64,000 nt of DNA. Origin: a phage. This document shows positions 2,925 through 8,906 of the stretch, piece after piece (position 1 is the first letter of the stretch; each line of letters starts with the position of its first letter). The stretch lies in the NCBI GenBank assembly GCA_012646185.1, contig GCA_012646185.1_4706.1, one strand, 5' to 3'. A program made the position numbers and the translations under genes. The notes under the pieces are model-generated. The model was given only the letters and a program-made list of their open reading frames with translations. It ran no database searches and was not told the origin of the DNA.

Positions 2925-4721
2925 TCAATCGATTATGTCGTGATCGTTAATTTCTACAATTTCTTCATCGAATCGACCGACGTCTTTCTTCAAGCCTGCA
3001 TTGGTTGCTGCAACGTCATTTGCAATTTGTGGGGTAATGATTAACCGACCGCGCTCATCGATAGGTGCGTACATACTGAACTTCTGACGTCCGGTTGGTT
3101 CGGAGTGTGGAAGATTCAGATAGCTTGCACAGAACGGGATGGAACCACTAACCAAACGACTCTCGTCAGCCAATGCAGCACCGCCTGCGTTTTGGCTCTG
3201 GAGAACAACATGCGTGCTCACTTTGAACAGCATGCAATCACCAGGTGACTGAATCGATGTTGCCACTTTCTCACGTTTATCACGATTGCTCTGGATATTG
3301 AGAATCGCTTCCGTTGCAACTTGATTTCGCAACGCCTTCTGTACATCGCGATTGGTCATCTCTTTACGGTTGTTCTGTCGTTTACCACGTTCTGTGGTTT
3401 TAAGATGGAACCCCAGTTTAAAGATGCTCTTACGCACATCCTCCATGACATATTCCAACACCATCAATTCCTTACCGAACATCGTCGTGGTGTCAACACG
3501 ACTCATTTCGATAGTGACATTGTCAATCAGATACGCCATAAATTCATAGAAGTCGTCGCAAGGAATATTTTCCTGTTTGAACTTCTTCTGCTGAATTTCG
3601 TCAACGTAAAGATCGAGACTGTCGATGTGGTGGTTTACATCACGCAACAAACGCGCATCCGCATTGTTGTTATTAAAGATAATCAAACCGAGTAATGTAC
3701 GCCAATGGTCTGGCGCATTCGCGAACTCTTCAACCGGATAGTCTTCCGGAAAACGATCGTAATAACGGTCGATGAGATACAAGAATGCACCGACAAGGCC
3801 AAGAACAATACGTTCCGTGCCTCCACGTCTTACAGCAATTTGAATATCAGGATGTTTGTAACGTACAGCGCTAGCGCTACGGCTTTTACCGCTTTTGCTG
3901 ATACTAAAGCCTTTAGGAATAACCCCCATGGTGCGATAGATTACCCATTGGTCACGCGGAAAATCACGTTCAGCAAGGTTCCGTCCGGTTACGGCTTCGA
4001 CACCTGCAAAACGTCGGAAACACTCACCCACCCCGTACTTCGCAAAGAGATAGTGACCCAGTGTGGTTACGCTGGTGTGGTTGATGTTGTCACCGTTCAC
4101 TTTACTTTGTTTAGTAAGATGATAGATTTGCGACCAGGGTAATGACAGGTAATGACGATAATCGATACCGGTCGGTGTATCGTTGCTCAGGAACTGATAC
4201 GGTGTACGTTTAACCGTGATTTTGTCACGCGGAAGCATGATGAACGCCATGTCTTTCGTGTAACTGATTACGGGGTCAGCGAGTACCGCACTGAGAATGA
4301 AGTTCGCACCACGTAGACGCATTTTACCACCCTGACCTACCGCGGGTAATAGGAGAGGATGTCGGATAATGCAGTAGTCCTTTCCGGGTTCACGACGGTC
4401 ACCTGATTCCATCGCGCCGTACCAGCGGAATTCTAGCATCACCATAAACACATCGGAAGGCGCAAGGTCGAAGGTCAGCTTACCGCTATCCTTCCCTTTG
4501 GTTTTCTTTCCTCCGCTTAAGTAGTGGAACTGTTCGCGGGCCATACAGCGACGCAGGCCATGATACACCAGATCCTTAGGTAAACTATCTTTGCTGTTCC
4601 GCCAAAGACGATCAACATAGGACTCAACATCTTGCATCTTATCGACGACGATGTTGCGTGCTATCTTCTCGTTCATCTTCGGTGCAAGCTCAGCGACAGC
4701 TTTGCAGAATCTAGGATCCAT
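2925..4721 (-). CDS. hypothetical protein (about 598 aa)
   Basis: Long ORF; start moved to ATG at 4719-4721 preceded by AAAGGAG at 6 nt (the ORF-track start at 4724 is a GTG one codon upstream); no catalytic motif recognised. Confidence 0.75.
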   Translation of the reverse strand: MDPRFCKAVAELAPKMNEKIARNIVVDKMQDVESYVDRLWRNSKDSLPKDLVYHGLRRCMAREQFHYLSGGKKTKGKDSGKLTFDLAPSDVFMVMLEFRWYGAMESGDRREPGKDYCIIRHPLLLPAVGQGGKMRLRGANFILSAVLADPVISYTKDMAFIMLPRDKITVKRTPYQFLSNDTPTGIDYRHYLSLPWSQIYHLTKQSKVNGDNINHTSVTTLGHYLFAKYGVGECFRRFAGVEAVTGRNLAERDFPRDQWVIYRTMGVIPKGFSISKSGKSRSASAVRYKHPDIQIAVRRGGTERIVLGLVGAFLYLIDRYYDRFPEDYPVEEFANAPDHWRTLLGLIIFNNNNADARLLRDVNHHIDSLDLYVDEIQQKKFKQENIPCDDFYEFMAYLIDNVTIEMSRVDTTTMFGKELMVLEYVMEDVRKSIFKLGFHLKTTERGKRQNNRKEMTNRDVQKALRNQVATEAILNIQSNRDKREKVATSIQSPGDCMLFKVSTHVVLQSQNAGGAALADESRLVSGSIPFCASYLNLPHSEPTGRQKFSMYAPIDERGRLIITPQIANDVAATNAGLKKDVGRFDEEIVEINDHDIID

Positions 4722-4760
4722 CACACACTCCTTTCAGAAAGTTGCTTAAGCAGATTAAAG

Positions 4761-6197
4761 TTACTTTTTCGATGACGCCTTTTCAAGAATCTTGAAAAAG
4801 GTCATACCTATACCGACAACGGCCGCGGTTATGCTCGCAGCGGCTTTCCAAACATCGACGTTACGTTGACGTCGCGCTTCTTCCGCTTCACGTTGTCTTT
4901 TTGCCTCTTCATCACGTCGACGTATCTCAGCAGCAAACTCGTCGTGCTTACGTTTGGCTTCTTCGTCTCGACGACGAAGTTCAGCGACGAATTCTTCATG
5001 TTTGCGTTTAGCCTCGTCATCACGACGTTTTAAATCAGCTTGATAATCTTCGTGTATTTGTTTACGTAGATCATCTTGACGCTTCATTTCGGCTTGGTGT
5101 TGTTCCATCCTACGTTTTTGTTCGTCTTTAAGCTGATCGAGTTCGGCTTTATGTTGTTCATCGCGCAGCTTTGCGTCGGCGCGATGCGCCTCATGCATCT
5201 GTGCGATAACTGCCTTGTGTTCATCCGCCATACGCCGCATTTCAGCCATCACCCCTTTAAGGGTTTCTTCTGATGCCTTACGTTCGTAGCTACGCTGGTC
5301 GAAATCATTTTTGTAGGCTTCTTTTTGGATGGGGTCGCGCCAATGCAATGCCGATTCACGTGTCGGAAAAACATTGTACTTCCACATCTCTTTTTCCAAA
5401 TCTTCGACCGGTACGAAGATGGAGTCATTATTCCCGAAGGTAACCAACATACCTGGCGCGCCTGCTCCATTCGTTGGTTTTATTTCGAACGCTTTCCCCA
5501 GCACGTTAACCCATAAGCTATACGGATTATGAAAGTCGGGTGGCGTCCAATGGATAGTGAGTTGCGTTCCGAGAATCCGGAAACCCTCTGTTTTTCCCGT
5601 CAAGCTCCGCGCGCACGTTGCGATGTAGGGGTGATCAATCCCTTTCGTAACGTGGTCTGCGCTTTTGTATTCTCCTTTAACTTTTACGATTGCCACGTTG
5701 ATTTGCGCGACATAAGCAGGTTGATTAAAGTTCAGCGTGTTGAGGTCAATTTGACATATTTCATCCAGCGTATCGTACCAGTCTTGCTGGTCTAATAGAC
5801 GCGGCATTTTCTCAGCGTTAACAATACGACGGATATGCGGTTTCCTTATCGCGTAACCTGTGCCGTTTTTAACACGGAGTATATCCCGACGTCTACCCGC
5901 GTAGACGAAGTTTCTGAATGCACCATTCGCATTAGATACGTCATGGCTGTCAACTATTACAGGACTACGAAATTTTGAACGTCGTACGATCCTGAATGTA
6001 TTGCCGTCCTCAACCCTACCAGGAATGTACTGGAACATATTGTCGGAGGTGATAACCAACACGGTATGGCCAGATTCATTAATACATGCCCATCCTAATT
6101 CCAGGTCATATAACGGTTCAGCATAACCGTCAATGCGATAAGCGTGCGTACCATCCCACGGTTCGAACGCGGTATCACATATTGGCATGGAGGGCAT
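4761..6197 (-). CDS. tail-anchored membrane protein with globular N-domain and long E/K/R-rich helical repeat region
   Basis: ORF with GGAGG 6 nt upstream of ATG at 6195-6197; C-terminal hydrophobic segment AAASITAAVVGIGMTFFKIL; preceding region is charged 17-aa repeats (RRDEEAKRKH[DE]EF.AE[IL]). Confidence 0.8.
   Translation of the reverse strand: MPSMPICDTAFEPWDGTHAYRIDGYAEPLYDLELGWACINESGHTVLVITSDNMFQYIPGRVEDGNTFRIVRRSKFRSPVIVDSHDVSNANGAFRNFVYAGRRRDILRVKNGTGYAIRKPHIRRIVNAEKMPRLLDQQDWYDTLDEICQIDLNTLNFNQPAYVAQINVAIVKVKGEYKSADHVTKGIDHPYIATCARSLTGKTEGFRILGTQLTIHWTPPDFHNPYSLWVNVLGKAFEIKPTNGAGAPGMLVTFGNNDSIFVPVEDLEKEMWKYNVFPTRESALHWRDPIQKEAYKNDFDQRSYERKASEETLKGVMAEMRRMADEHKAVIAQMHEAHRADAKLRDEQHKAELDQLKDEQKRRMEQHQAEMKRQDDLRKQIHEDYQADLKRRDDEAKRKHEEFVAELRRRDEEAKRKHDEFAAEIRRRDEEAKRQREAEEARRQRNVDVWKAAASITAAVVGIGMTFFKILEKASSKK
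4850..5030. repeat. imperfect about 51-bp tandem repeat inside CDS 4761..6197
   Basis: Two to three adjacent copies of a unit encoding RRDEEAKRKH-EF-AE; visible as repeated cgacgacgaagttcagcgacgaattcttcatgtttgcgtt-like blocks. Confidence 0.6.
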
Positions 6198-6346
6198 CGT
6201 CAACCTCCATCTGATTGAAAACTATCACGCATAATGCATTTCCCTTTTCTTGTTCTTATCGAGCCGACAGCCGACGGTTTCAGCATCGTTCCTAGCGCGA
6301 GAACGACCTTACGTGTTGTCTATGCCTTATTCATCGCAGGCGTCTG

Positions 6347-6405
6347 TCACCTAGGTAATGTAAGCGTCAAATTTTTTCTATTCGCAACAATAAACGGCAT
6401 AGAAA
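6347..6405 (-). promoter_or_regulatory. conserved intergenic element, copy B (promoter or 5' leader candidate)
   Basis: Shares CACCTAGGTAATGTA...GCATAGAA core with copies at 12829..12888 and 51485..51545; lies between the hairpin after the 740-aa gene and the next minus-strand gene. Confidence 0.4.
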
Positions 6406-6435
6406 CCTCCCCCAACCCTTACGGGCTGAGGGAGG
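6406..6435. terminator. GC-rich hairpin downstream of 6535..8757 (intrinsic terminator candidate)
   Basis: CCTCCC...GGGAGG outer stem with inner CCC/GGG stem and 4-nt loop; member of the recurring intergenic hairpin family. Confidence 0.55.
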
Positions 6436-6534
6436 CTGACTTATGTATCACGGTGCCGGATGAATGTCCGGTGCAATGAAACCATCCGCAACGTTGTCGT
6501 CAAGAATATCGTCCAACGAAGCAGCTACGGTAGT

Positions 6535-8757
6535 TCAGTTAGTCTGAACCGGCAGCTTGATGTTTTCAGTGTAGACCTTACGCAGGTTCACAACGTTAAT
6601 CAGACCCAGCAGCGGGCAGTTGTTAACGAAGCGGCAGCGCGGCTGAACCATGGTTTCTTTAGAAACCTGACCGTTACGGGTAACCTGAGCAACAGATACC
6701 AGTTCCGGTACATACAGGAACATACCGAAGGTCAGCGGATCCGGAGAACCCTGGATACCACGAGACAGGGTCACGAAGATCTTATCGCGCAGCATGACGT
6801 TCGGGTTATCTACAACCACGAAGTTGAAGCTTACACCAACGGTACGGAAATCGCCATCGGTCTGCAGGAACTGCGGGATGTAGTTGTCAGTTGCTACTAC
6901 GCAACGCGGTTTCTCATCAGCGTTGGAAGACAGCAGCTGCAGAGCTGGCTGATAACCAGACTCGGAGTACATGCGGTATGCCATCTCACGAATCACGTTC
7001 ATGATCGCAGCAGACACTTCAGCACGACGTTCTGCAGTGGTGGTACCCTGAACAGATTTCTCCAGGTCCAGATTGATTTCTTCGAACCACGGACGGATCA
7101 GGTAACGACCGAAACCTTCGATCTGGATGTCGCCGAACTGACGGAAGCGAGAGGTCGCAACCGCTTTCAGTGCGTCTTTGTAGCTGAACAGTTTCTCAAC
7201 CATCAGGTTGTCGAAACGTGCGTTAGCAGCTTGGATCAGAACGTCCAGGTCAGCAGCGTTTTCTTCCCAATCCAGCGGACGAGGAATGGAGAACGGAGCC
7301 AGCAGGCCGATTGCGTAACGTTCTTGCTTCATGTTGAAGTCAAGGTGCTTACCGCGCTCACGACGGTTGCTGTTGTTACGGCGGATACGCAGTTCGTAAC
7401 CAACCAGTTTGAAGCTCAGGTCTTCAGCCAGCTGTTTGAACTCTTCGCCCTTACGCGGTTGTTCGATGTTGTCACGATCGACCAGACGATACAGTTCAGC
7501 GTTAGCGCCGTTAACACGCAGACCGGCTTTCTCTACGTTGGAAGAACCGTAAACTTCGATTGCCAGCTGAGCAGCGGATTTCGAATCGATGATGTCCTGC
7601 AGCGCTTCAGCTCGTGCACCTTTAACGTCAACGGTGTTCTCATCAACGAAGATGGAGTGGGTGTCGAACGCCAGGGTCATTTTGCGGAAGTCGCCTTCCA
7701 GGGATTTCTGGAAACCGTTGGTGATCAGACCAGATACGTCGAACGGTACGTAAGAGGTTTTGCTGTGCTTGGTAGATTTGATTTCCACCAGGATTTTGGT
7801 CAGCGTGATCTGGGCGTCCAGCGCGTCGGTGTTGTCGCTGTAACCGTTAGCCAGGATGCTATCGTCTTCAGCGATACCGATCATGTCGATCAGTTTATCA
7901 ACAGCCAGGTAAGACGTTTTATAAGTTACGCCTTTAATTTCGATGTCGCGCGGAGCAACGATAGCTTTGTCAACGAAGTACTGTGCGTTAGCATCGTCAG
8001 CACGATAGATCGGATGCAGATCGGTCACGTCGTTGGACAGAACGTCGTTGTACATGAACGCATCCAGCAGCGGACGACGTACCCAATCAGCCGGAGTACC
8101 GTCAGCGTTACGACGCAGGTGGTTGAACACCAGCGGACGACGGAAAGATACGTCGTAACCGATCTGGTTCGGAGCCAGAACGATGGTGTTGTACAGTTCG
8201 TTACCCATGCGGCTCAGACGAGAAGCCTTCACGTTGAACACAACGGAGTACGGCATCATGTCACGCAGTTCTTTCTGGTCGTAGGACAGCTGAACCAGTT
8301 CTTCAGATTCGCAACCGCAGGAATCAGCAGCCATCATGACGAAGTTAGAGCTGTCAACTTCACGGCCAGACGGAGTGGTGCTGATGTTCATGGAACGTGC
8401 TTGTTTAGCATATTCCACCGGGTTACCATGAGCCAGCATGATCAGTGCTGCTGCACGAGCCTGCTGTGCGTTCATGGTGAACAGCTGTTCTTCAATACGC
8501 TGCTTCTCTTCCGGAGTGGTGGTTTCGAAGCCCAGCATGGACAGAACCGGTTCTTCGGCTTTACGGATGTCGCTGCTGAAGCTCTTAACATCCATTTCGT
8601 TAACCAGTTTGTCCATGGATTTGAAATCAACCTTAGAAGCAGATTCCATAGACAGGAAGGTGTTCTCCAGACCTTTGTCTGCTGGTTTGCTACCATTAGC
8701 GGTCAGGAACTGGCGAGTGGCCGCGACCTGTTGGCTAAGAAGGGTTTTATCATTCAT
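6535..8757 (-). CDS. major virion structural protein, tentatively major capsid protein (740 aa)
   Basis: Strongest codon bias in the window (its antisense strand is stop-free for about 2.3 kb, ORF 6460..8760); AAAGGA 8 nt upstream of ATG; followed by hairpin; size fits jumbo-phage capsid proteins but no motif confirms the fold, and a tail sheath protein is an alternative. Confidence 0.45.
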   Translation of the reverse strand: MNDKTLLSQQVAATRQFLTANGSKPADKGLENTFLSMESASKVDFKSMDKLVNEMDVKSFSSDIRKAEEPVLSMLGFETTTPEEKQRIEEQLFTMNAQQARAAALIMLAHGNPVEYAKQARSMNISTTPSGREVDSSNFVMMAADSCGCESEELVQLSYDQKELRDMMPYSVVFNVKASRLSRMGNELYNTIVLAPNQIGYDVSFRRPLVFNHLRRNADGTPADWVRRPLLDAFMYNDVLSNDVTDLHPIYRADDANAQYFVDKAIVAPRDIEIKGVTYKTSYLAVDKLIDMIGIAEDDSILANGYSDNTDALDAQITLTKILVEIKSTKHSKTSYVPFDVSGLITNGFQKSLEGDFRKMTLAFDTHSIFVDENTVDVKGARAEALQDIIDSKSAAQLAIEVYGSSNVEKAGLRVNGANAELYRLVDRDNIEQPRKGEEFKQLAEDLSFKLVGYELRIRRNNSNRRERGKHLDFNMKQERYAIGLLAPFSIPRPLDWEENAADLDVLIQAANARFDNLMVEKLFSYKDALKAVATSRFRQFGDIQIEGFGRYLIRPWFEEINLDLEKSVQGTTTAERRAEVSAAIMNVIREMAYRMYSESGYQPALQLLSSNADEKPRCVVATDNYIPQFLQTDGDFRTVGVSFNFVVVDNPNVMLRDKIFVTLSRGIQGSPDPLTFGMFLYVPELVSVAQVTRNGQVSKETMVQPRCRFVNNCPLLGLINVVNLRKVYTENIKLPVQTN

Positions 8758-8906
8758 TGAAAGTATCCTTTACAGAATTAACTTATATAAGTCGGTCGAT
8801 AGACCATAGCGTACACGCGTGCATGCGCCACTATAGTATCAGTAAACACTTACCGTTATTGAGGTCGTGATACAACACTAAAAATGCCGCATAACTTTTC
8901 CCTACG

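Follow-up and report, generated by a model that had tools for sequence, protein, structure and literature searches.

An early core-gene product of nucleus-forming jumbo phages with a head, a repeat-built charged helix and a candidate C-terminal membrane anchor

Introduction

Nucleus-forming phages use two compartments in succession, first a lipid early infection (EPI) vesicle and then a protein nucleus, and both the attachment of the two and the hand-over of the genome are stated to be unexplained. In Escherichia phage Goslar, >95% of the ChmA shells adjoin an EPI vesicle and shell and vesicle rotate together; how they bind to each other is given as unknown in the literature. The word 'transmembrane' is absent from the chimallivirus papers that we searched for it, and the passages of the chimallivirus literature available to us name no phage-encoded membrane-anchored factor.

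Tethers that connect compartments are familiar from other systems. The eukaryotic golgins giantin and golgin-84 and the KASH/LINC proteins have one membrane segment at the C-terminus, where the luminal tail is very short, and a long helical rod that carries a distal binding domain by which another compartment is captured. Long charged helices are also known as ER/K single alpha-helix (SAH) domains from myosin VI and X and from caldesmon. Among phage proteins, the i-spanin Rz of lambda is a bitopic inner-membrane protein with a long charged helical ectodomain.

In the present contribution we analyse a protein that resembles these systems in outline and is encoded in a stretch of phage DNA of 64,000 nucleotides (NCBI GenBank assembly GCA_012646185.1, contig GCA_012646185.1_4706.1), hereafter referred to as the window. 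The protein belongs to core gene cg35 of the Chimalliviridae, a core family of the nucleus-forming jumbo phages. The supplementary table of the core genome lists cg35 as gp040 of Goslar, gp122 of phiKZ and gp001 of RAY with the entry 'hypothetical'. Neither function nor architecture of the family was found described in a literature search, and a search for Goslar gp40, its accession and a chimallivirus transmembrane protein returned nothing. A preliminary description of the gene had recognised neither its core-gene status nor the existing experimental data.

Results

The gene is a single open reading frame on the minus strand (4761..6197; all features given below are located on this strand) and encodes 478 amino acids plus stop. 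The ATG at 6197 is preceded at 6 nt by a Shine-Dalgarno sequence, GGAGG (6204..6208), that can be read directly. A TTG which the ORF finder lists for 6203 falls into the Shine-Dalgarno spacer, and the RefSeq coding sequence of Goslar starts with the ATG that corresponds to 6197. The product is 99.4% identical to Goslar gp040 (YP_009820725.1; tblastn) with only three amino acid differences. It is the ortholog of gp040, and the phage is a Goslar-like jumbo phage. The upstream gene (6535..8757) codes for the phiKZ-type major capsid protein (Pfam PhiKZ_MCP, 4.5e-216) and corresponds to Goslar gp041, a late-class gene with a log2FC of about -4 upon knockdown of ChmA. An intrinsic-terminator-like hairpin (6386..6438) lies immediately downstream of the capsid gene and consists of a 15-bp GC-rich stem and a U-rich tract; its RNA fold has a z value of -4.1, and none of 200 shuffled sequences folds as well. 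The hairpin stands between the late capsid gene and the early gp040 ortholog, and in Goslar the RNA-seq class switches between gp041 and gp040. On the other side, the gene for a beta-type subunit of the non-virion RNA polymerase (nvRNAP) begins 39 nt past the stop codon (2925..4721; phrog_2943 'polymerase', 7e-120). It corresponds to Goslar gp039, which is annotated as nvRNAP in the virion mass spectrometry table of Goslar. As gp039 has the same RNA-seq class as gp040 and a search for a terminator between both genes found none, the two genes are likely co-transcribed. A scan for sigma-70 promoters was uninformative for this phage.

The assignment to cg35 is based on PHROG bridges, a Foldseek search, synteny and the published table. 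The window protein itself matches phrog_7727 weakly (2.4e-5), P0017 matches the same family at 1.5e-7 and P0015 matches phrog 7286 at 5e-5. The gp122 protein of Xoo-sp14 bridges PHROGs 7727, 7286 and 15024, the last of which is the family of phiKZ gp122. Foldseek against BFVD returned 28 uncharacterised chimallivirus proteins with E values of 1e-4 to 1e-11 (best 9e-12). Compared directly by hhalign, the Goslar-type alignment matched neither phiKZ gp122 nor Xoo-sp14 gp122 significantly (E 0.05-0.07), an exhaustive profile search recovered three Goslar-type sequence clusters only and no other lineage, and a search for related loci with a narrow alignment found only three Goslar-like contigs. Within cg35, to which phiKZ gp122, 201phi2-1 gp202, the product of PhiPA3 gene 138, RAY gp001 and Goslar gp040 belong, the Goslar-type proteins exceed all other members in length and divergence. 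In every phage examined, the cg35 gene is flanked on the same strand by the gene for the phiKZ-type major capsid protein upstream and by that for the nvRNAP beta-type subunit downstream. This comparison comprised the window, Goslar and Goslar-type relatives, phiKZ, Xoo-sp14, 201phi2-1, RAY, RSL2, PhiEaH1, PCH45, Eowyn, LucasX, Proteus phage 10, Noxifer and PhiPA3.

Published experiments on several members provide information on expression, location and importance of the protein. On ChmA knockdown in Goslar, gp037-gp040 keep their expression (RNA-seq log2FC about +0.9), whereas expression of gp041-043 and gp035-036 drops by 4-6 log2 units; gp040 is an early gene. It is also a non-virion protein: gp040 is missing from the complete LC-MS/MS list of the Goslar virion, in which gp037, gp038, gp039 and gp041 are present. 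In the phiKZ antisense screen, both oligomers against PHIKZ122 scored '+', i.e. the ortholog is needed for efficient propagation, and silencing strongly affected the phage's transcription at 30 min, in a group with ChmA, nvRNAP and PicA. Note that the phiKZ nvRNAP gene gp123 starts 10 nt downstream of gp122 and that oligomers targeting gp124, which flanks gp123 on its far side, acted similarly to those against gp122; the effect of the gp122 oligomers could thus be polar on gp123. The product of PhiPA3 gene 138 was recovered in pulldowns with ChmA-GFP and ChmB-GFP at 45 min and by proximity labelling with ChmA, where it ranked outside the top 25 hits.

The N-terminal domain (residues 1-288; 5334..6197) is predicted to be beta-rich. 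It is non-hydrophobic, has a polar N-terminus and comprises about 288-307 aa, somewhat less than the approximately 330 aa that had been assigned to it previously. Two AF2 runs with alignments of 10 and 13 sequences modelled this head with low confidence (pLDDT 30-80), and because of this we do not propose a binding surface. The family alignment revealed the family-wide motifs [FIV]N.SG, IP, HP, PG/DG and F.T..EA in the head. The N-terminal domain has no match in Pfam or the PDB. A Pfam scan of the entire protein identified no family and gave a sub-threshold FUSC match on the charged helix alone, 24 family members yielded spurious single matches only, and a profile search against PDB sequences produced nothing below E = 0.77. 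When the weak head model was compared with the PDB by Foldseek, no match was credible (best E = 0.04, probability 0.13).

The head is followed by a long charged alpha-helix (residues 289-449; 4851..5333). In the AF2 model the helix is uninterrupted from residue 289 to 475, with pLDDT values of 75-89 over residues 320-430. The earlier observation of an E/K/R-rich segment behind the N-terminal domain is borne out by a charged fraction of 0.57-0.71 over residues 361-440; the segment is longer than the 120 residues given for it, with about 140-160 aa ahead of the anchor. The stalk proper, between head and pre-anchor motif, accounts for about 140 residues or roughly 21 nm. Its distal part (residues 379-445) has a charged fraction of 0.62-0.71 and a score of 0.5-0.7 for pairs of opposite charge at i->i+4. 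Hydrophobic residues make up 10-19% across most of the stalk and 19-33% in its proximal third (residues 311-345). Along all 139 residues, the 24 hydrophobic residues of the stalk are aligned on a single straight face with about 3.62 residues per turn (R = 0.61), an arrangement that was reached by none of 2000 shuffles. A heptad periodicity of 3.5 residues per turn was not detected in the stalk (R = 0.25, p = 0.22), and the heptads with a dense a/d core of a canonical left-handed coiled coil are not present. The stalk shows the charge pattern of an SAH, but given the hydrophobic seam it is not a pure single alpha-helix.

The stalk is built from repeats. Five units of 18 aa (54 nt) are recognisable in residues 347-436 (4890..5159), the best three of which cover residues 383-436 (4890..5051) according to the unit identity matrix. 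This replaces the preliminary description of 17-aa units, visible as a 51-bp DNA tandem repeat at about 4850..5030. BLOSUM autocorrelation of the protein peaks at lags 18, 36 and 54, self-identity of the DNA is 0.50 at lag 54 vs 0.37 at lag 51, and a DNA repeat search returned a family (D2) with a spacing of 54. The autocorrelation of 1.79 at lag 18 lies beyond all of 5000 shuffles (maximum 0.79). The repeat is predicted to be helical, as had been supposed: the helix is continuous in the AF2 model. One unit of 18 residues equals five helical turns. Pairwise, the units are 54-67% identical in DNA and 39-72% in protein. At such a low identity of the DNA units Tandem Repeats Finder is blind to the repeat and reported nothing in this region; both findings argue for an old, diverged protein repeat and not for a crisp tandem repeat of the DNA.

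The last repeat unit and a pre-anchor motif (residues 419-451, FAAEIRRRDEEAKRQREAEEARRQRNVDVWK; 4845..4943) form the best-conserved stretch of the protein. It is 94-100% identical in close relatives and 70% identical even in relatives that share only 30% across the head, and a related motif, R[KR][DE]xx[DE]xWK, is present in other lineages. The high conservation of these 33 membrane-proximal residues speaks for a specific function at the membrane surface.

The sole hydrophobic segment of the protein, the C-terminal helix of residues 452-468 (A452-F468, AAASITAAVVGIGMTFF; 4794..4844), is a candidate tail anchor. It consists of 17 uncharged residues between K451 and K469 and is followed by the short basic tail KILEKASSKK (residues 469-478; 4764..4793); basic tails also follow the anchor in most lineages. 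All top Kyte-Doolittle windows are at residues 447-456 and later. As expected for a tail-anchored protein, there is just one hydrophobic segment, located no more than about 30 residues from the C-terminus, and neither a signal peptide nor a further transmembrane segment. The preliminary description of a single C-terminal transmembrane helix holds insofar as there is one such segment with a Kyte-Doolittle 19-residue maximum (KD19) of 1.76 (classical threshold 1.6). However, the best 19-mer has an uncorrected Hessa sum of +2.8 kcal/mol (Eisenberg <H> 0.63), and by its sequence the helix appears only marginally transmembrane-like. Under the positive-inside rule, the lysines on both flanks are at odds with an N-in/C-out tail anchor. 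The layout of two lysines separated by 17 residues is identical in P0015 and P0017, and in eight of the 12 lineages surveyed 13-17 consecutive uncharged residues (KD19 1.7-2.0) with Lys/Arg flanks are preceded by Trp-Lys. The C-terminal helix of the phiKZ, 201phi2-1, PhiPA3 and Proteus phage 10 orthologs is acidic and amphipathic; for the first three of these, among them the sources of the functional data, Hessa sums of about 9-10 are not transmembrane-like. The Goslar-type anchor is clearly more transmembrane-like than that of the Pseudomonas phage members.

Relatives of 460, 478, 489 and 507 aa differ by insertions and deletions, in agreement with the previous suggestion that the repeat number could vary between isolates. 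Among close relatives these amount to exactly one 18-aa unit (-18, +18) or to 11 aa. Divergence also has a local hotspot in the helix region. For the natural variants of 460, 478 and 507 aa, predicted stalk lengths are 18.3, 21.0 and 25.3 nm. All length steps keep the helical phase, as 18 residues correspond to five turns and 11 residues to about three turns. Goslar-type stalks are expanded by the 18-aa repeats to 122-169 residues vs about 45-117 elsewhere. The idea that the head is held at a fixed distance from the membrane had to be abandoned, with a helix segment of 64 aa to 169 aa within the Goslar-type phages and a linker of about 45 aa in phiKZ. From a spacer bridging a defined gap, one would not expect stalk lengths that differ three- to fourfold across the family. 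The general architecture is retained: head, charged helix and a hydrophobic stretch between two lysines are the same in the three Goslar-type clusters (search of 1.84 billion representatives), and the layout is also common to the orthologs of Xoo-sp14, RSL2, PhiEaH1, PCH45, Eowyn, LucasX and Noxifer. Most lineages keep the architecture as described earlier; the C-terminal helix is amphipathic in phiKZ, 201phi2-1 and PhiPA3.

Discussion

The gene product is an early, non-virion protein that is laid out as a head, a helical stalk of about 140 residues, a conserved membrane-proximal segment, a hydrophobic helix flanked by lysines and a basic tail. We tentatively propose that it is a membrane-anchored stalk protein by which the EPI vesicle and the nascent nuclear shell are connected, a reading that we consider quite possible, if short of probable. 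Since the ribosome releases it last, the C-terminal anchor would be inserted into a lipid membrane after translation, as in tail-anchored proteins. The bacterial host lacks a GET/TRC pathway. The stalk would then hold out the head, about 290-300 aa and presumably cytoplasmic, which would bind the nascent chimallin shell, and the protein may contribute to the attachment of EPI vesicle and phage nucleus that precedes the hand-off of the genome. Membrane insertion, topology, target membrane and tether function are what we infer in this model.

A further-reaching version assigns to cg35 the role of the missing factor that tethers or docks the lipid EPI vesicle to the chimallin nucleus and licenses direct transfer of the genome. 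In that case host ribosomes would produce cg35 from the earliest transcripts to exit the vesicle, the tail would be inserted into the vesicle membrane, and the ChmA/ChmB shell would be nucleated or captured at a stand-off set by the stalk, of 18, 21 or 25 nm depending on the natural Goslar-like variant. We regard this version as speculative and rather unlikely.

The proposed stalk protein shares with golgins and KASH/LINC proteins the order of distal domain, helical rod, single C-terminal hydrophobic segment and very short tail. There is no sequence relationship between them, and in contrast to the heptad coiled coil of golgin-type tethers the phage stalk is a highly charged single helix with an 18-residue periodicity. 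In this respect residues 379-445 are similar to ER/K SAH domains: they are as highly charged (62-71%), contain dense i->i+4 acid-base pairs and are modelled by AF2 as an isolated straight helix. The few hydrophobic residues of the phage stalk form a seam, however, and are not scattered. The predicted bitopic layout with a charged helical ectodomain also recalls i-spanins. Rz has an N-terminal transmembrane segment and a periplasmic coiled coil, is a late protein and is encoded in a lysis cassette, paired with the gene for an o-spanin lipoprotein; the anchor of the present protein is C-terminal, its gene is early and the neighbours are the capsid and nvRNAP genes. None of the spanin features is present.

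A different function is suggested by the downstream neighbour. The protein could be a factor dedicated to the assembly, delivery or regulation of nvRNAP, in which the membrane or amphipathic helix is incidental or serves to hold back nvRNAP subunits until the nucleus exists. The cg35 gene directly precedes the nvRNAP beta-type gene in every lineage examined, at a distance of only 4-39 nt vs 200-390 nt after the capsid gene, gp040 matches gp039 in expression class and level, and the transcription phenotype of the phiKZ ortholog at 30 min groups it with nvRNAP subunits. This phenotype, however, may be mere polarity on gp123. Purified phiKZ nvRNAP consists of the five subunits gp55, gp68, gp71/73, gp74 and gp123 and is not known to contain gp122, which counts against such a factor. 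Moreover, nvRNAP acts inside the nucleus, where a RAY gp002 fusion is found, and therefore a membrane-anchored partner could not go along. We assume that a dedicated nvRNAP factor is unlikely.

Alternatively, the C-terminal helix may be a protein-protein element that bundles the stalks or docks into the chimallin lattice or another assembly, so that the protein would be a soluble, shell-associated fibre. Such a role would be in line with the marginal hydrophobicity of the anchor and its acidic, amphipathic counterparts in phiKZ, 201phi2-1, PhiPA3 and Proteus phage 10, with a straight hydrophobic seam (3.6 residues per turn) through which stalks could self-associate, and with the co-purification of the PhiPA3 ortholog with ChmA and ChmB. 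A hydrophobic density of 10-19% is too low for a stable bundle, though, and the uncharged, Lys/Arg-flanked 13-17 residues that follow Trp-Lys in eight of 12 lineages, with their KD19 of 1.7-2.0, have the typical look of an interfacial or transmembrane segment. A soluble fibre thus appears doubtful to us.

A membrane platform for procapsid assembly was our first hypothesis from the position of the gene next to the major capsid gene in all lineages, with vertex-complex and portal genes nearby. According to reviews, chimallivirus capsids start to assemble on the inner membrane, where partial capsids were seen by cryo-ET. The hypothesis was downgraded because RNA-seq shows that the gene is early and ChmA-independent, in contrast to the late genes for capsid, vertex complex and portal, and it is very improbable also in view of the terminator hairpin that separates the gene from the capsid gene, of a gp040 that is undetected in virions and of a phiKZ knock-down that acts on transcription at 30 min, before assembly.

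Irrespective of its function, the stalk represents a clear natural case of a charged helical repeat of 18 residues, i.e. of five turns. With the membrane-anchored stalk protein proposed here, a core gene of the nucleus-forming phages now has a concrete architecture, and its product is an early non-virion protein that associates with the shell in one phage and is required for efficient propagation of another. If the tether reading is true, cg35 would be the first known phage protein that couples a lipid organelle to a protein organelle.

Architecture of the gp040 protein

The window region shares 98.7% nucleotide identity with vB_EcoM_Goslar, an Escherichia jumbo phage that forms a nucleus. The ORF at 4761..6197 (minus strand; ATG at 6197, GGAGG six bases upstream) is the counterpart of Goslar gp040 (annotation: 'hypothetical protein'), from which its product differs by three amino acids at equal length. 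Upstream lies the gene for a phiKZ-type major capsid protein (6535..8757, minus strand; Pfam PF25620, 4.5e-216). Directly after the capsid stop codon, a hairpin with a 15-bp GC-rich stem and a following U-rich tract (~6386..6438, minus strand; fold z = -4.1) was missed by a simple terminator scan. An antisense ORF of 766 codons (6460..8760, plus strand) lies codon-aligned and exactly opposite the capsid gene. TTA, CTA and TCA, the sole sense codons that produce antisense stops, are absolutely avoided in the capsid gene (0 among 67 Leu and 52 Ser codons) and make up 10 of 43 and 12 of 83 Leu/Ser codons in the genes next to it; the avoidance is probably an extreme codon bias of a very highly expressed late gene.

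The N-terminal part of the protein (the head) is polar and beta-rich and is followed by a strongly charged segment in which the proportion of D+E+K+R per 40-residue block rises from ~0.2 to 0.57-0.68. Autocorrelation of the protein gives sharp peaks only at lags 18, 36 and 54; at lag 18 the score is 1.79, above the best-lag score of each of 5000 shuffles (maximum 0.79). The repeat noted in the preliminary description is thus real, but its figures needed correction: one unit measures 18 aa / 54 nt and not 17 aa / 51 bp, and the recognisable array extends over 4890..5159 instead of about 4850..5030. Units start in register at residues 347, 365, 383, 401 and 419, and less distinct ones at 329 and 437; the final three have the sequences EDYQADLKRRDDEAKRKH, EEFVAELRRRDEEAKRKH and DEFAAEIRRRDEEAKRQR. 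Eighteen residues make exactly five alpha-helix turns. Tandem Repeats Finder gave no report in the repeat region because the 54-nt units share no more than 54-67% identity.

In the AlphaFold2 model, residues 289-475 form a single unbroken helix, with pLDDT 75-89 for 320-430. Residues 379-445 of this stalk, being 62-71% charged and 5-14% hydrophobic with dense i->i+4 acid-base pairs, resemble an ER/K single alpha-helix. The 24 hydrophobic residues in 311-449 share one helix face with a best fit of 3.62 residues per turn (R = 0.61, Rayleigh p ~1.5e-4; reached by 0 of 2000 shuffles), and no heptad signal at 3.5 residues per turn was found among them. Such a straight and sparse seam does not match a canonical coiled coil; it could let stalks associate weakly in parallel, or touch a surface.

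The sole hydrophobic segment, A452-F468, is a run of 17 uncharged residues enclosed by K451 and K469 and leads into the tail KILEKASSKK. Its Kyte-Doolittle 19-residue maximum of 1.76, its Eisenberg <H> of 0.63 and the uncorrected Hessa sum of +2.8 kcal/mol for the best 19-mer make it a plausible but marginal candidate for a transmembrane or interfacial anchor, whose topology is uncertain because both flanks are basic.

Length variation among Goslar-type relatives

Searching by word index and by exhaustive profile comparison (1.84 billion cluster representatives) returned only three Goslar-type sequence clusters: the Goslar-like one (460-507 aa), one formed by proteins P0015/P0016 (413 aa, ~30% identity in the head) and one of protein P0017 (406 aa). 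Each cluster retains head, charged helix, K-17-K hydrophobic helix and basic tail, and the genes lie in the same genomic slot. Within the Goslar-like group, exact loss of unit 347-364 gives a protein of 460 aa, an extra unit copied from its neighbour adds 18 aa, and another length variant is an 11-residue insertion. Measured between the head's end (residue 307) and the pre-anchor motif, Goslar-like stalks comprise 122, 140, 151 or 169 residues (~18-25 nm if helical), those of P0015/P0016 and P0017 only 64-75. Variation this wide contradicts the earlier proposal of a spacer holding a domain at a fixed distance.

Goslar-like contigs are 91-99% identical in nucleotide sequence across the capsid and nvRNAP (non-virion RNA polymerase) genes, and the helix-coding part (~4858..5307) is a local divergence hotspot with 73-83% identity to contigs L020 and L021 and indels of 33 and 54 nt. 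For the P0003 contig, protein identity is 98% in the head and only 66% in the stalk, a difference that suggests recombination, or faster change, limited to the stalk. The best-conserved stretch is 419-451, the last unit plus the pre-anchor motif, with 94-100% identity in close relatives and 70% in relatives whose head is just 30% identical. Goslar-like sequences also occur in NCBI assemblies labelled Salmonella enterica and E. coli O157 (proteins P0004, P0007, P0012-P0014; contig L021), whose phage contigs include whole phage genomes of 244,464 and 244,573 bp; this suggests a carrier state or contamination, and a host range beyond E. coli.

A conserved slot in Chimalliviridae

The order capsid gene, cg35 gene, nvRNAP gene is conserved in Chimalliviridae. 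The slot is occupied by phiKZ gp122, 201phi2-1 gp202, PhiPA3 gene 138 (identified via the gene-number column and accession YP_009217217.1), Xoo-sp14 gp122, RAY gp1 and genes of RSL2, PhiEaH1, PCH45, Eowyn, LucasX, Proteus phage 10 and Noxifer. Its occupant always precedes the nvRNAP gene by 4-39 nt and follows the capsid gene by ~200-390 nt. Homology of these genes with the Goslar-type proteins is supported by PHROG profile bridges, by common motifs in a 24-sequence alignment, by a Foldseek search in which the AF2 head model retrieved 28 uncharacterised chimallivirus proteins (E down to 9e-12), and by the published core-genome table, whose row cg35 lists Goslar gp040, phiKZ gp122 and RAY gp001 as 'hypothetical'. 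The head has no Pfam family, solved structure or credible fold match among Pfam, PDB sequences and PDB structures.

A charged helical linker (45-196 residues) is present in most lineages, together with a C-terminal helix in which Lys residues flank 13-17 uncharged ones; the motif R[KR][DE]xx[DE]xWK often stands in front of this helix. The terminal helix of phiKZ, 201phi2-1, PhiPA3 and Proteus phage 10 is amphipathic with acidic residues (Hessa sums ~9-10). In the RSL2, PhiEaH1 and PCH45 orthologs (loci L012, L013, L014), a duplicated 11-residue motif, S[LI]xRKD....E, lies within the last ~40 residues directly before the anchor; this membrane-proximal hendecad repeat may parallel the conserved Goslar-type pre-anchor segment. 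Pseudomonas-phage lineages carry an extra ORF of 150-177 aa between the capsid and cg35 genes: phiKZ gp121 (L005, 7952-8404), 201phi2-1 gp201 (L007, 8405-8923), PhiPA3 gene 137 (L019, 6288-6821) and Noxifer gp123 (L018, 940-1386). It overlaps the cg35 start by ~30-45 nt in the first three, the same three of four with a non-TM-like cg35 terminal helix (Noxifer's is TM-like), and is absent in Goslar-type phages, Xoo-sp14, RSL2, PhiEaH1 and Eowyn.

Possible role at the vesicle-nucleus junction

Knockdown of the nuclear-shell protein ChmA (chimallin) arrests Goslar at the stage of the EPI vesicle, the early lipid compartment (Armbruster et al.). Under these conditions gp037-gp040 remain at or above the control level (log2FC ~+0.7 to +1.2), while expression of the capsid gene gp041 and of gp042, gp043 and gp035/036 drops by 4-6 log2 units (Armbruster et al., Supplementary Table 2). 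Therefore gp040 belongs to the early genes, is expressed from the vesicle and shares its regulation with gp039, labelled nvRNAP in a separate published Goslar table, and not with the capsid gene. The strong hairpin and U-tract fit this early class and coincide with the late-to-early switch of expression class in published Goslar RNA-seq. The complete LC-MS/MS list of Goslar virions contains gp037, gp038, gp039 and gp041; gp040 is absent. Goslar gp038 (L001, 4333-6891), the phiKZ gp124 homolog that follows gp039 (within window interval 2925..4760) in the same early block, is present in virions at ~25 copies despite its early class.

In the published phiKZ antisense screen PHIKZ122 scored '+' with both of two oligomers, which speaks for importance in propagation, and its silencing had 'strong effects on phage transcription' at 30 min, as did that of ChmA, nvRNAP subunits, PicA, KZ124 and KZ151. 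This phenotype and the tight linkage to the nvRNAP gene would suit a factor dedicated to nvRNAP, a role we regard as unlikely; the silencing effect may be polar on gp123, which starts 10 nt downstream. Pulldowns with ChmA-GFP and with ChmB-GFP (ChmB being another shell protein) and ChmA proximity labelling each yielded the PhiPA3 gene-138 protein, which the source describes as conserved, with its role unknown. A soluble shell-associated fibre, with the terminal helix as a protein-binding element, is likewise improbable in our judgement. A procapsid platform is disfavoured by the early expression and appears very unlikely.

More than 95% of Goslar ChmA shells adjoin an EPI vesicle, which remains attached and rotates together with the nucleus; the authors declare both the mode of attachment between the compartments and the manner of genome transfer to be unknown. 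The architecture, repeat, copy-number variation, synteny and family membership are shown here; early expression, absence from virions, importance for propagation and the shell association of an ortholog come from the literature. Combining them, we tentatively propose, as the likeliest mechanism, that the gp040 protein would become membrane-anchored after translation, that its stalk would present the head, that the head would engage the nascent chimallin shell, and that the protein would thus act at the vesicle-nucleus junction. Taken as a whole, this proposal has somewhat less than an even chance of being correct, and that cg35 encodes the specific vesicle-nucleus tether is doubtful.

The family is listed among the core genes already; no function was assigned to cg35 in the literature searched, and the passages there that mention it do not describe the architecture of its protein. 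The finding is real and of more interest than an isolated repeat protein would be.
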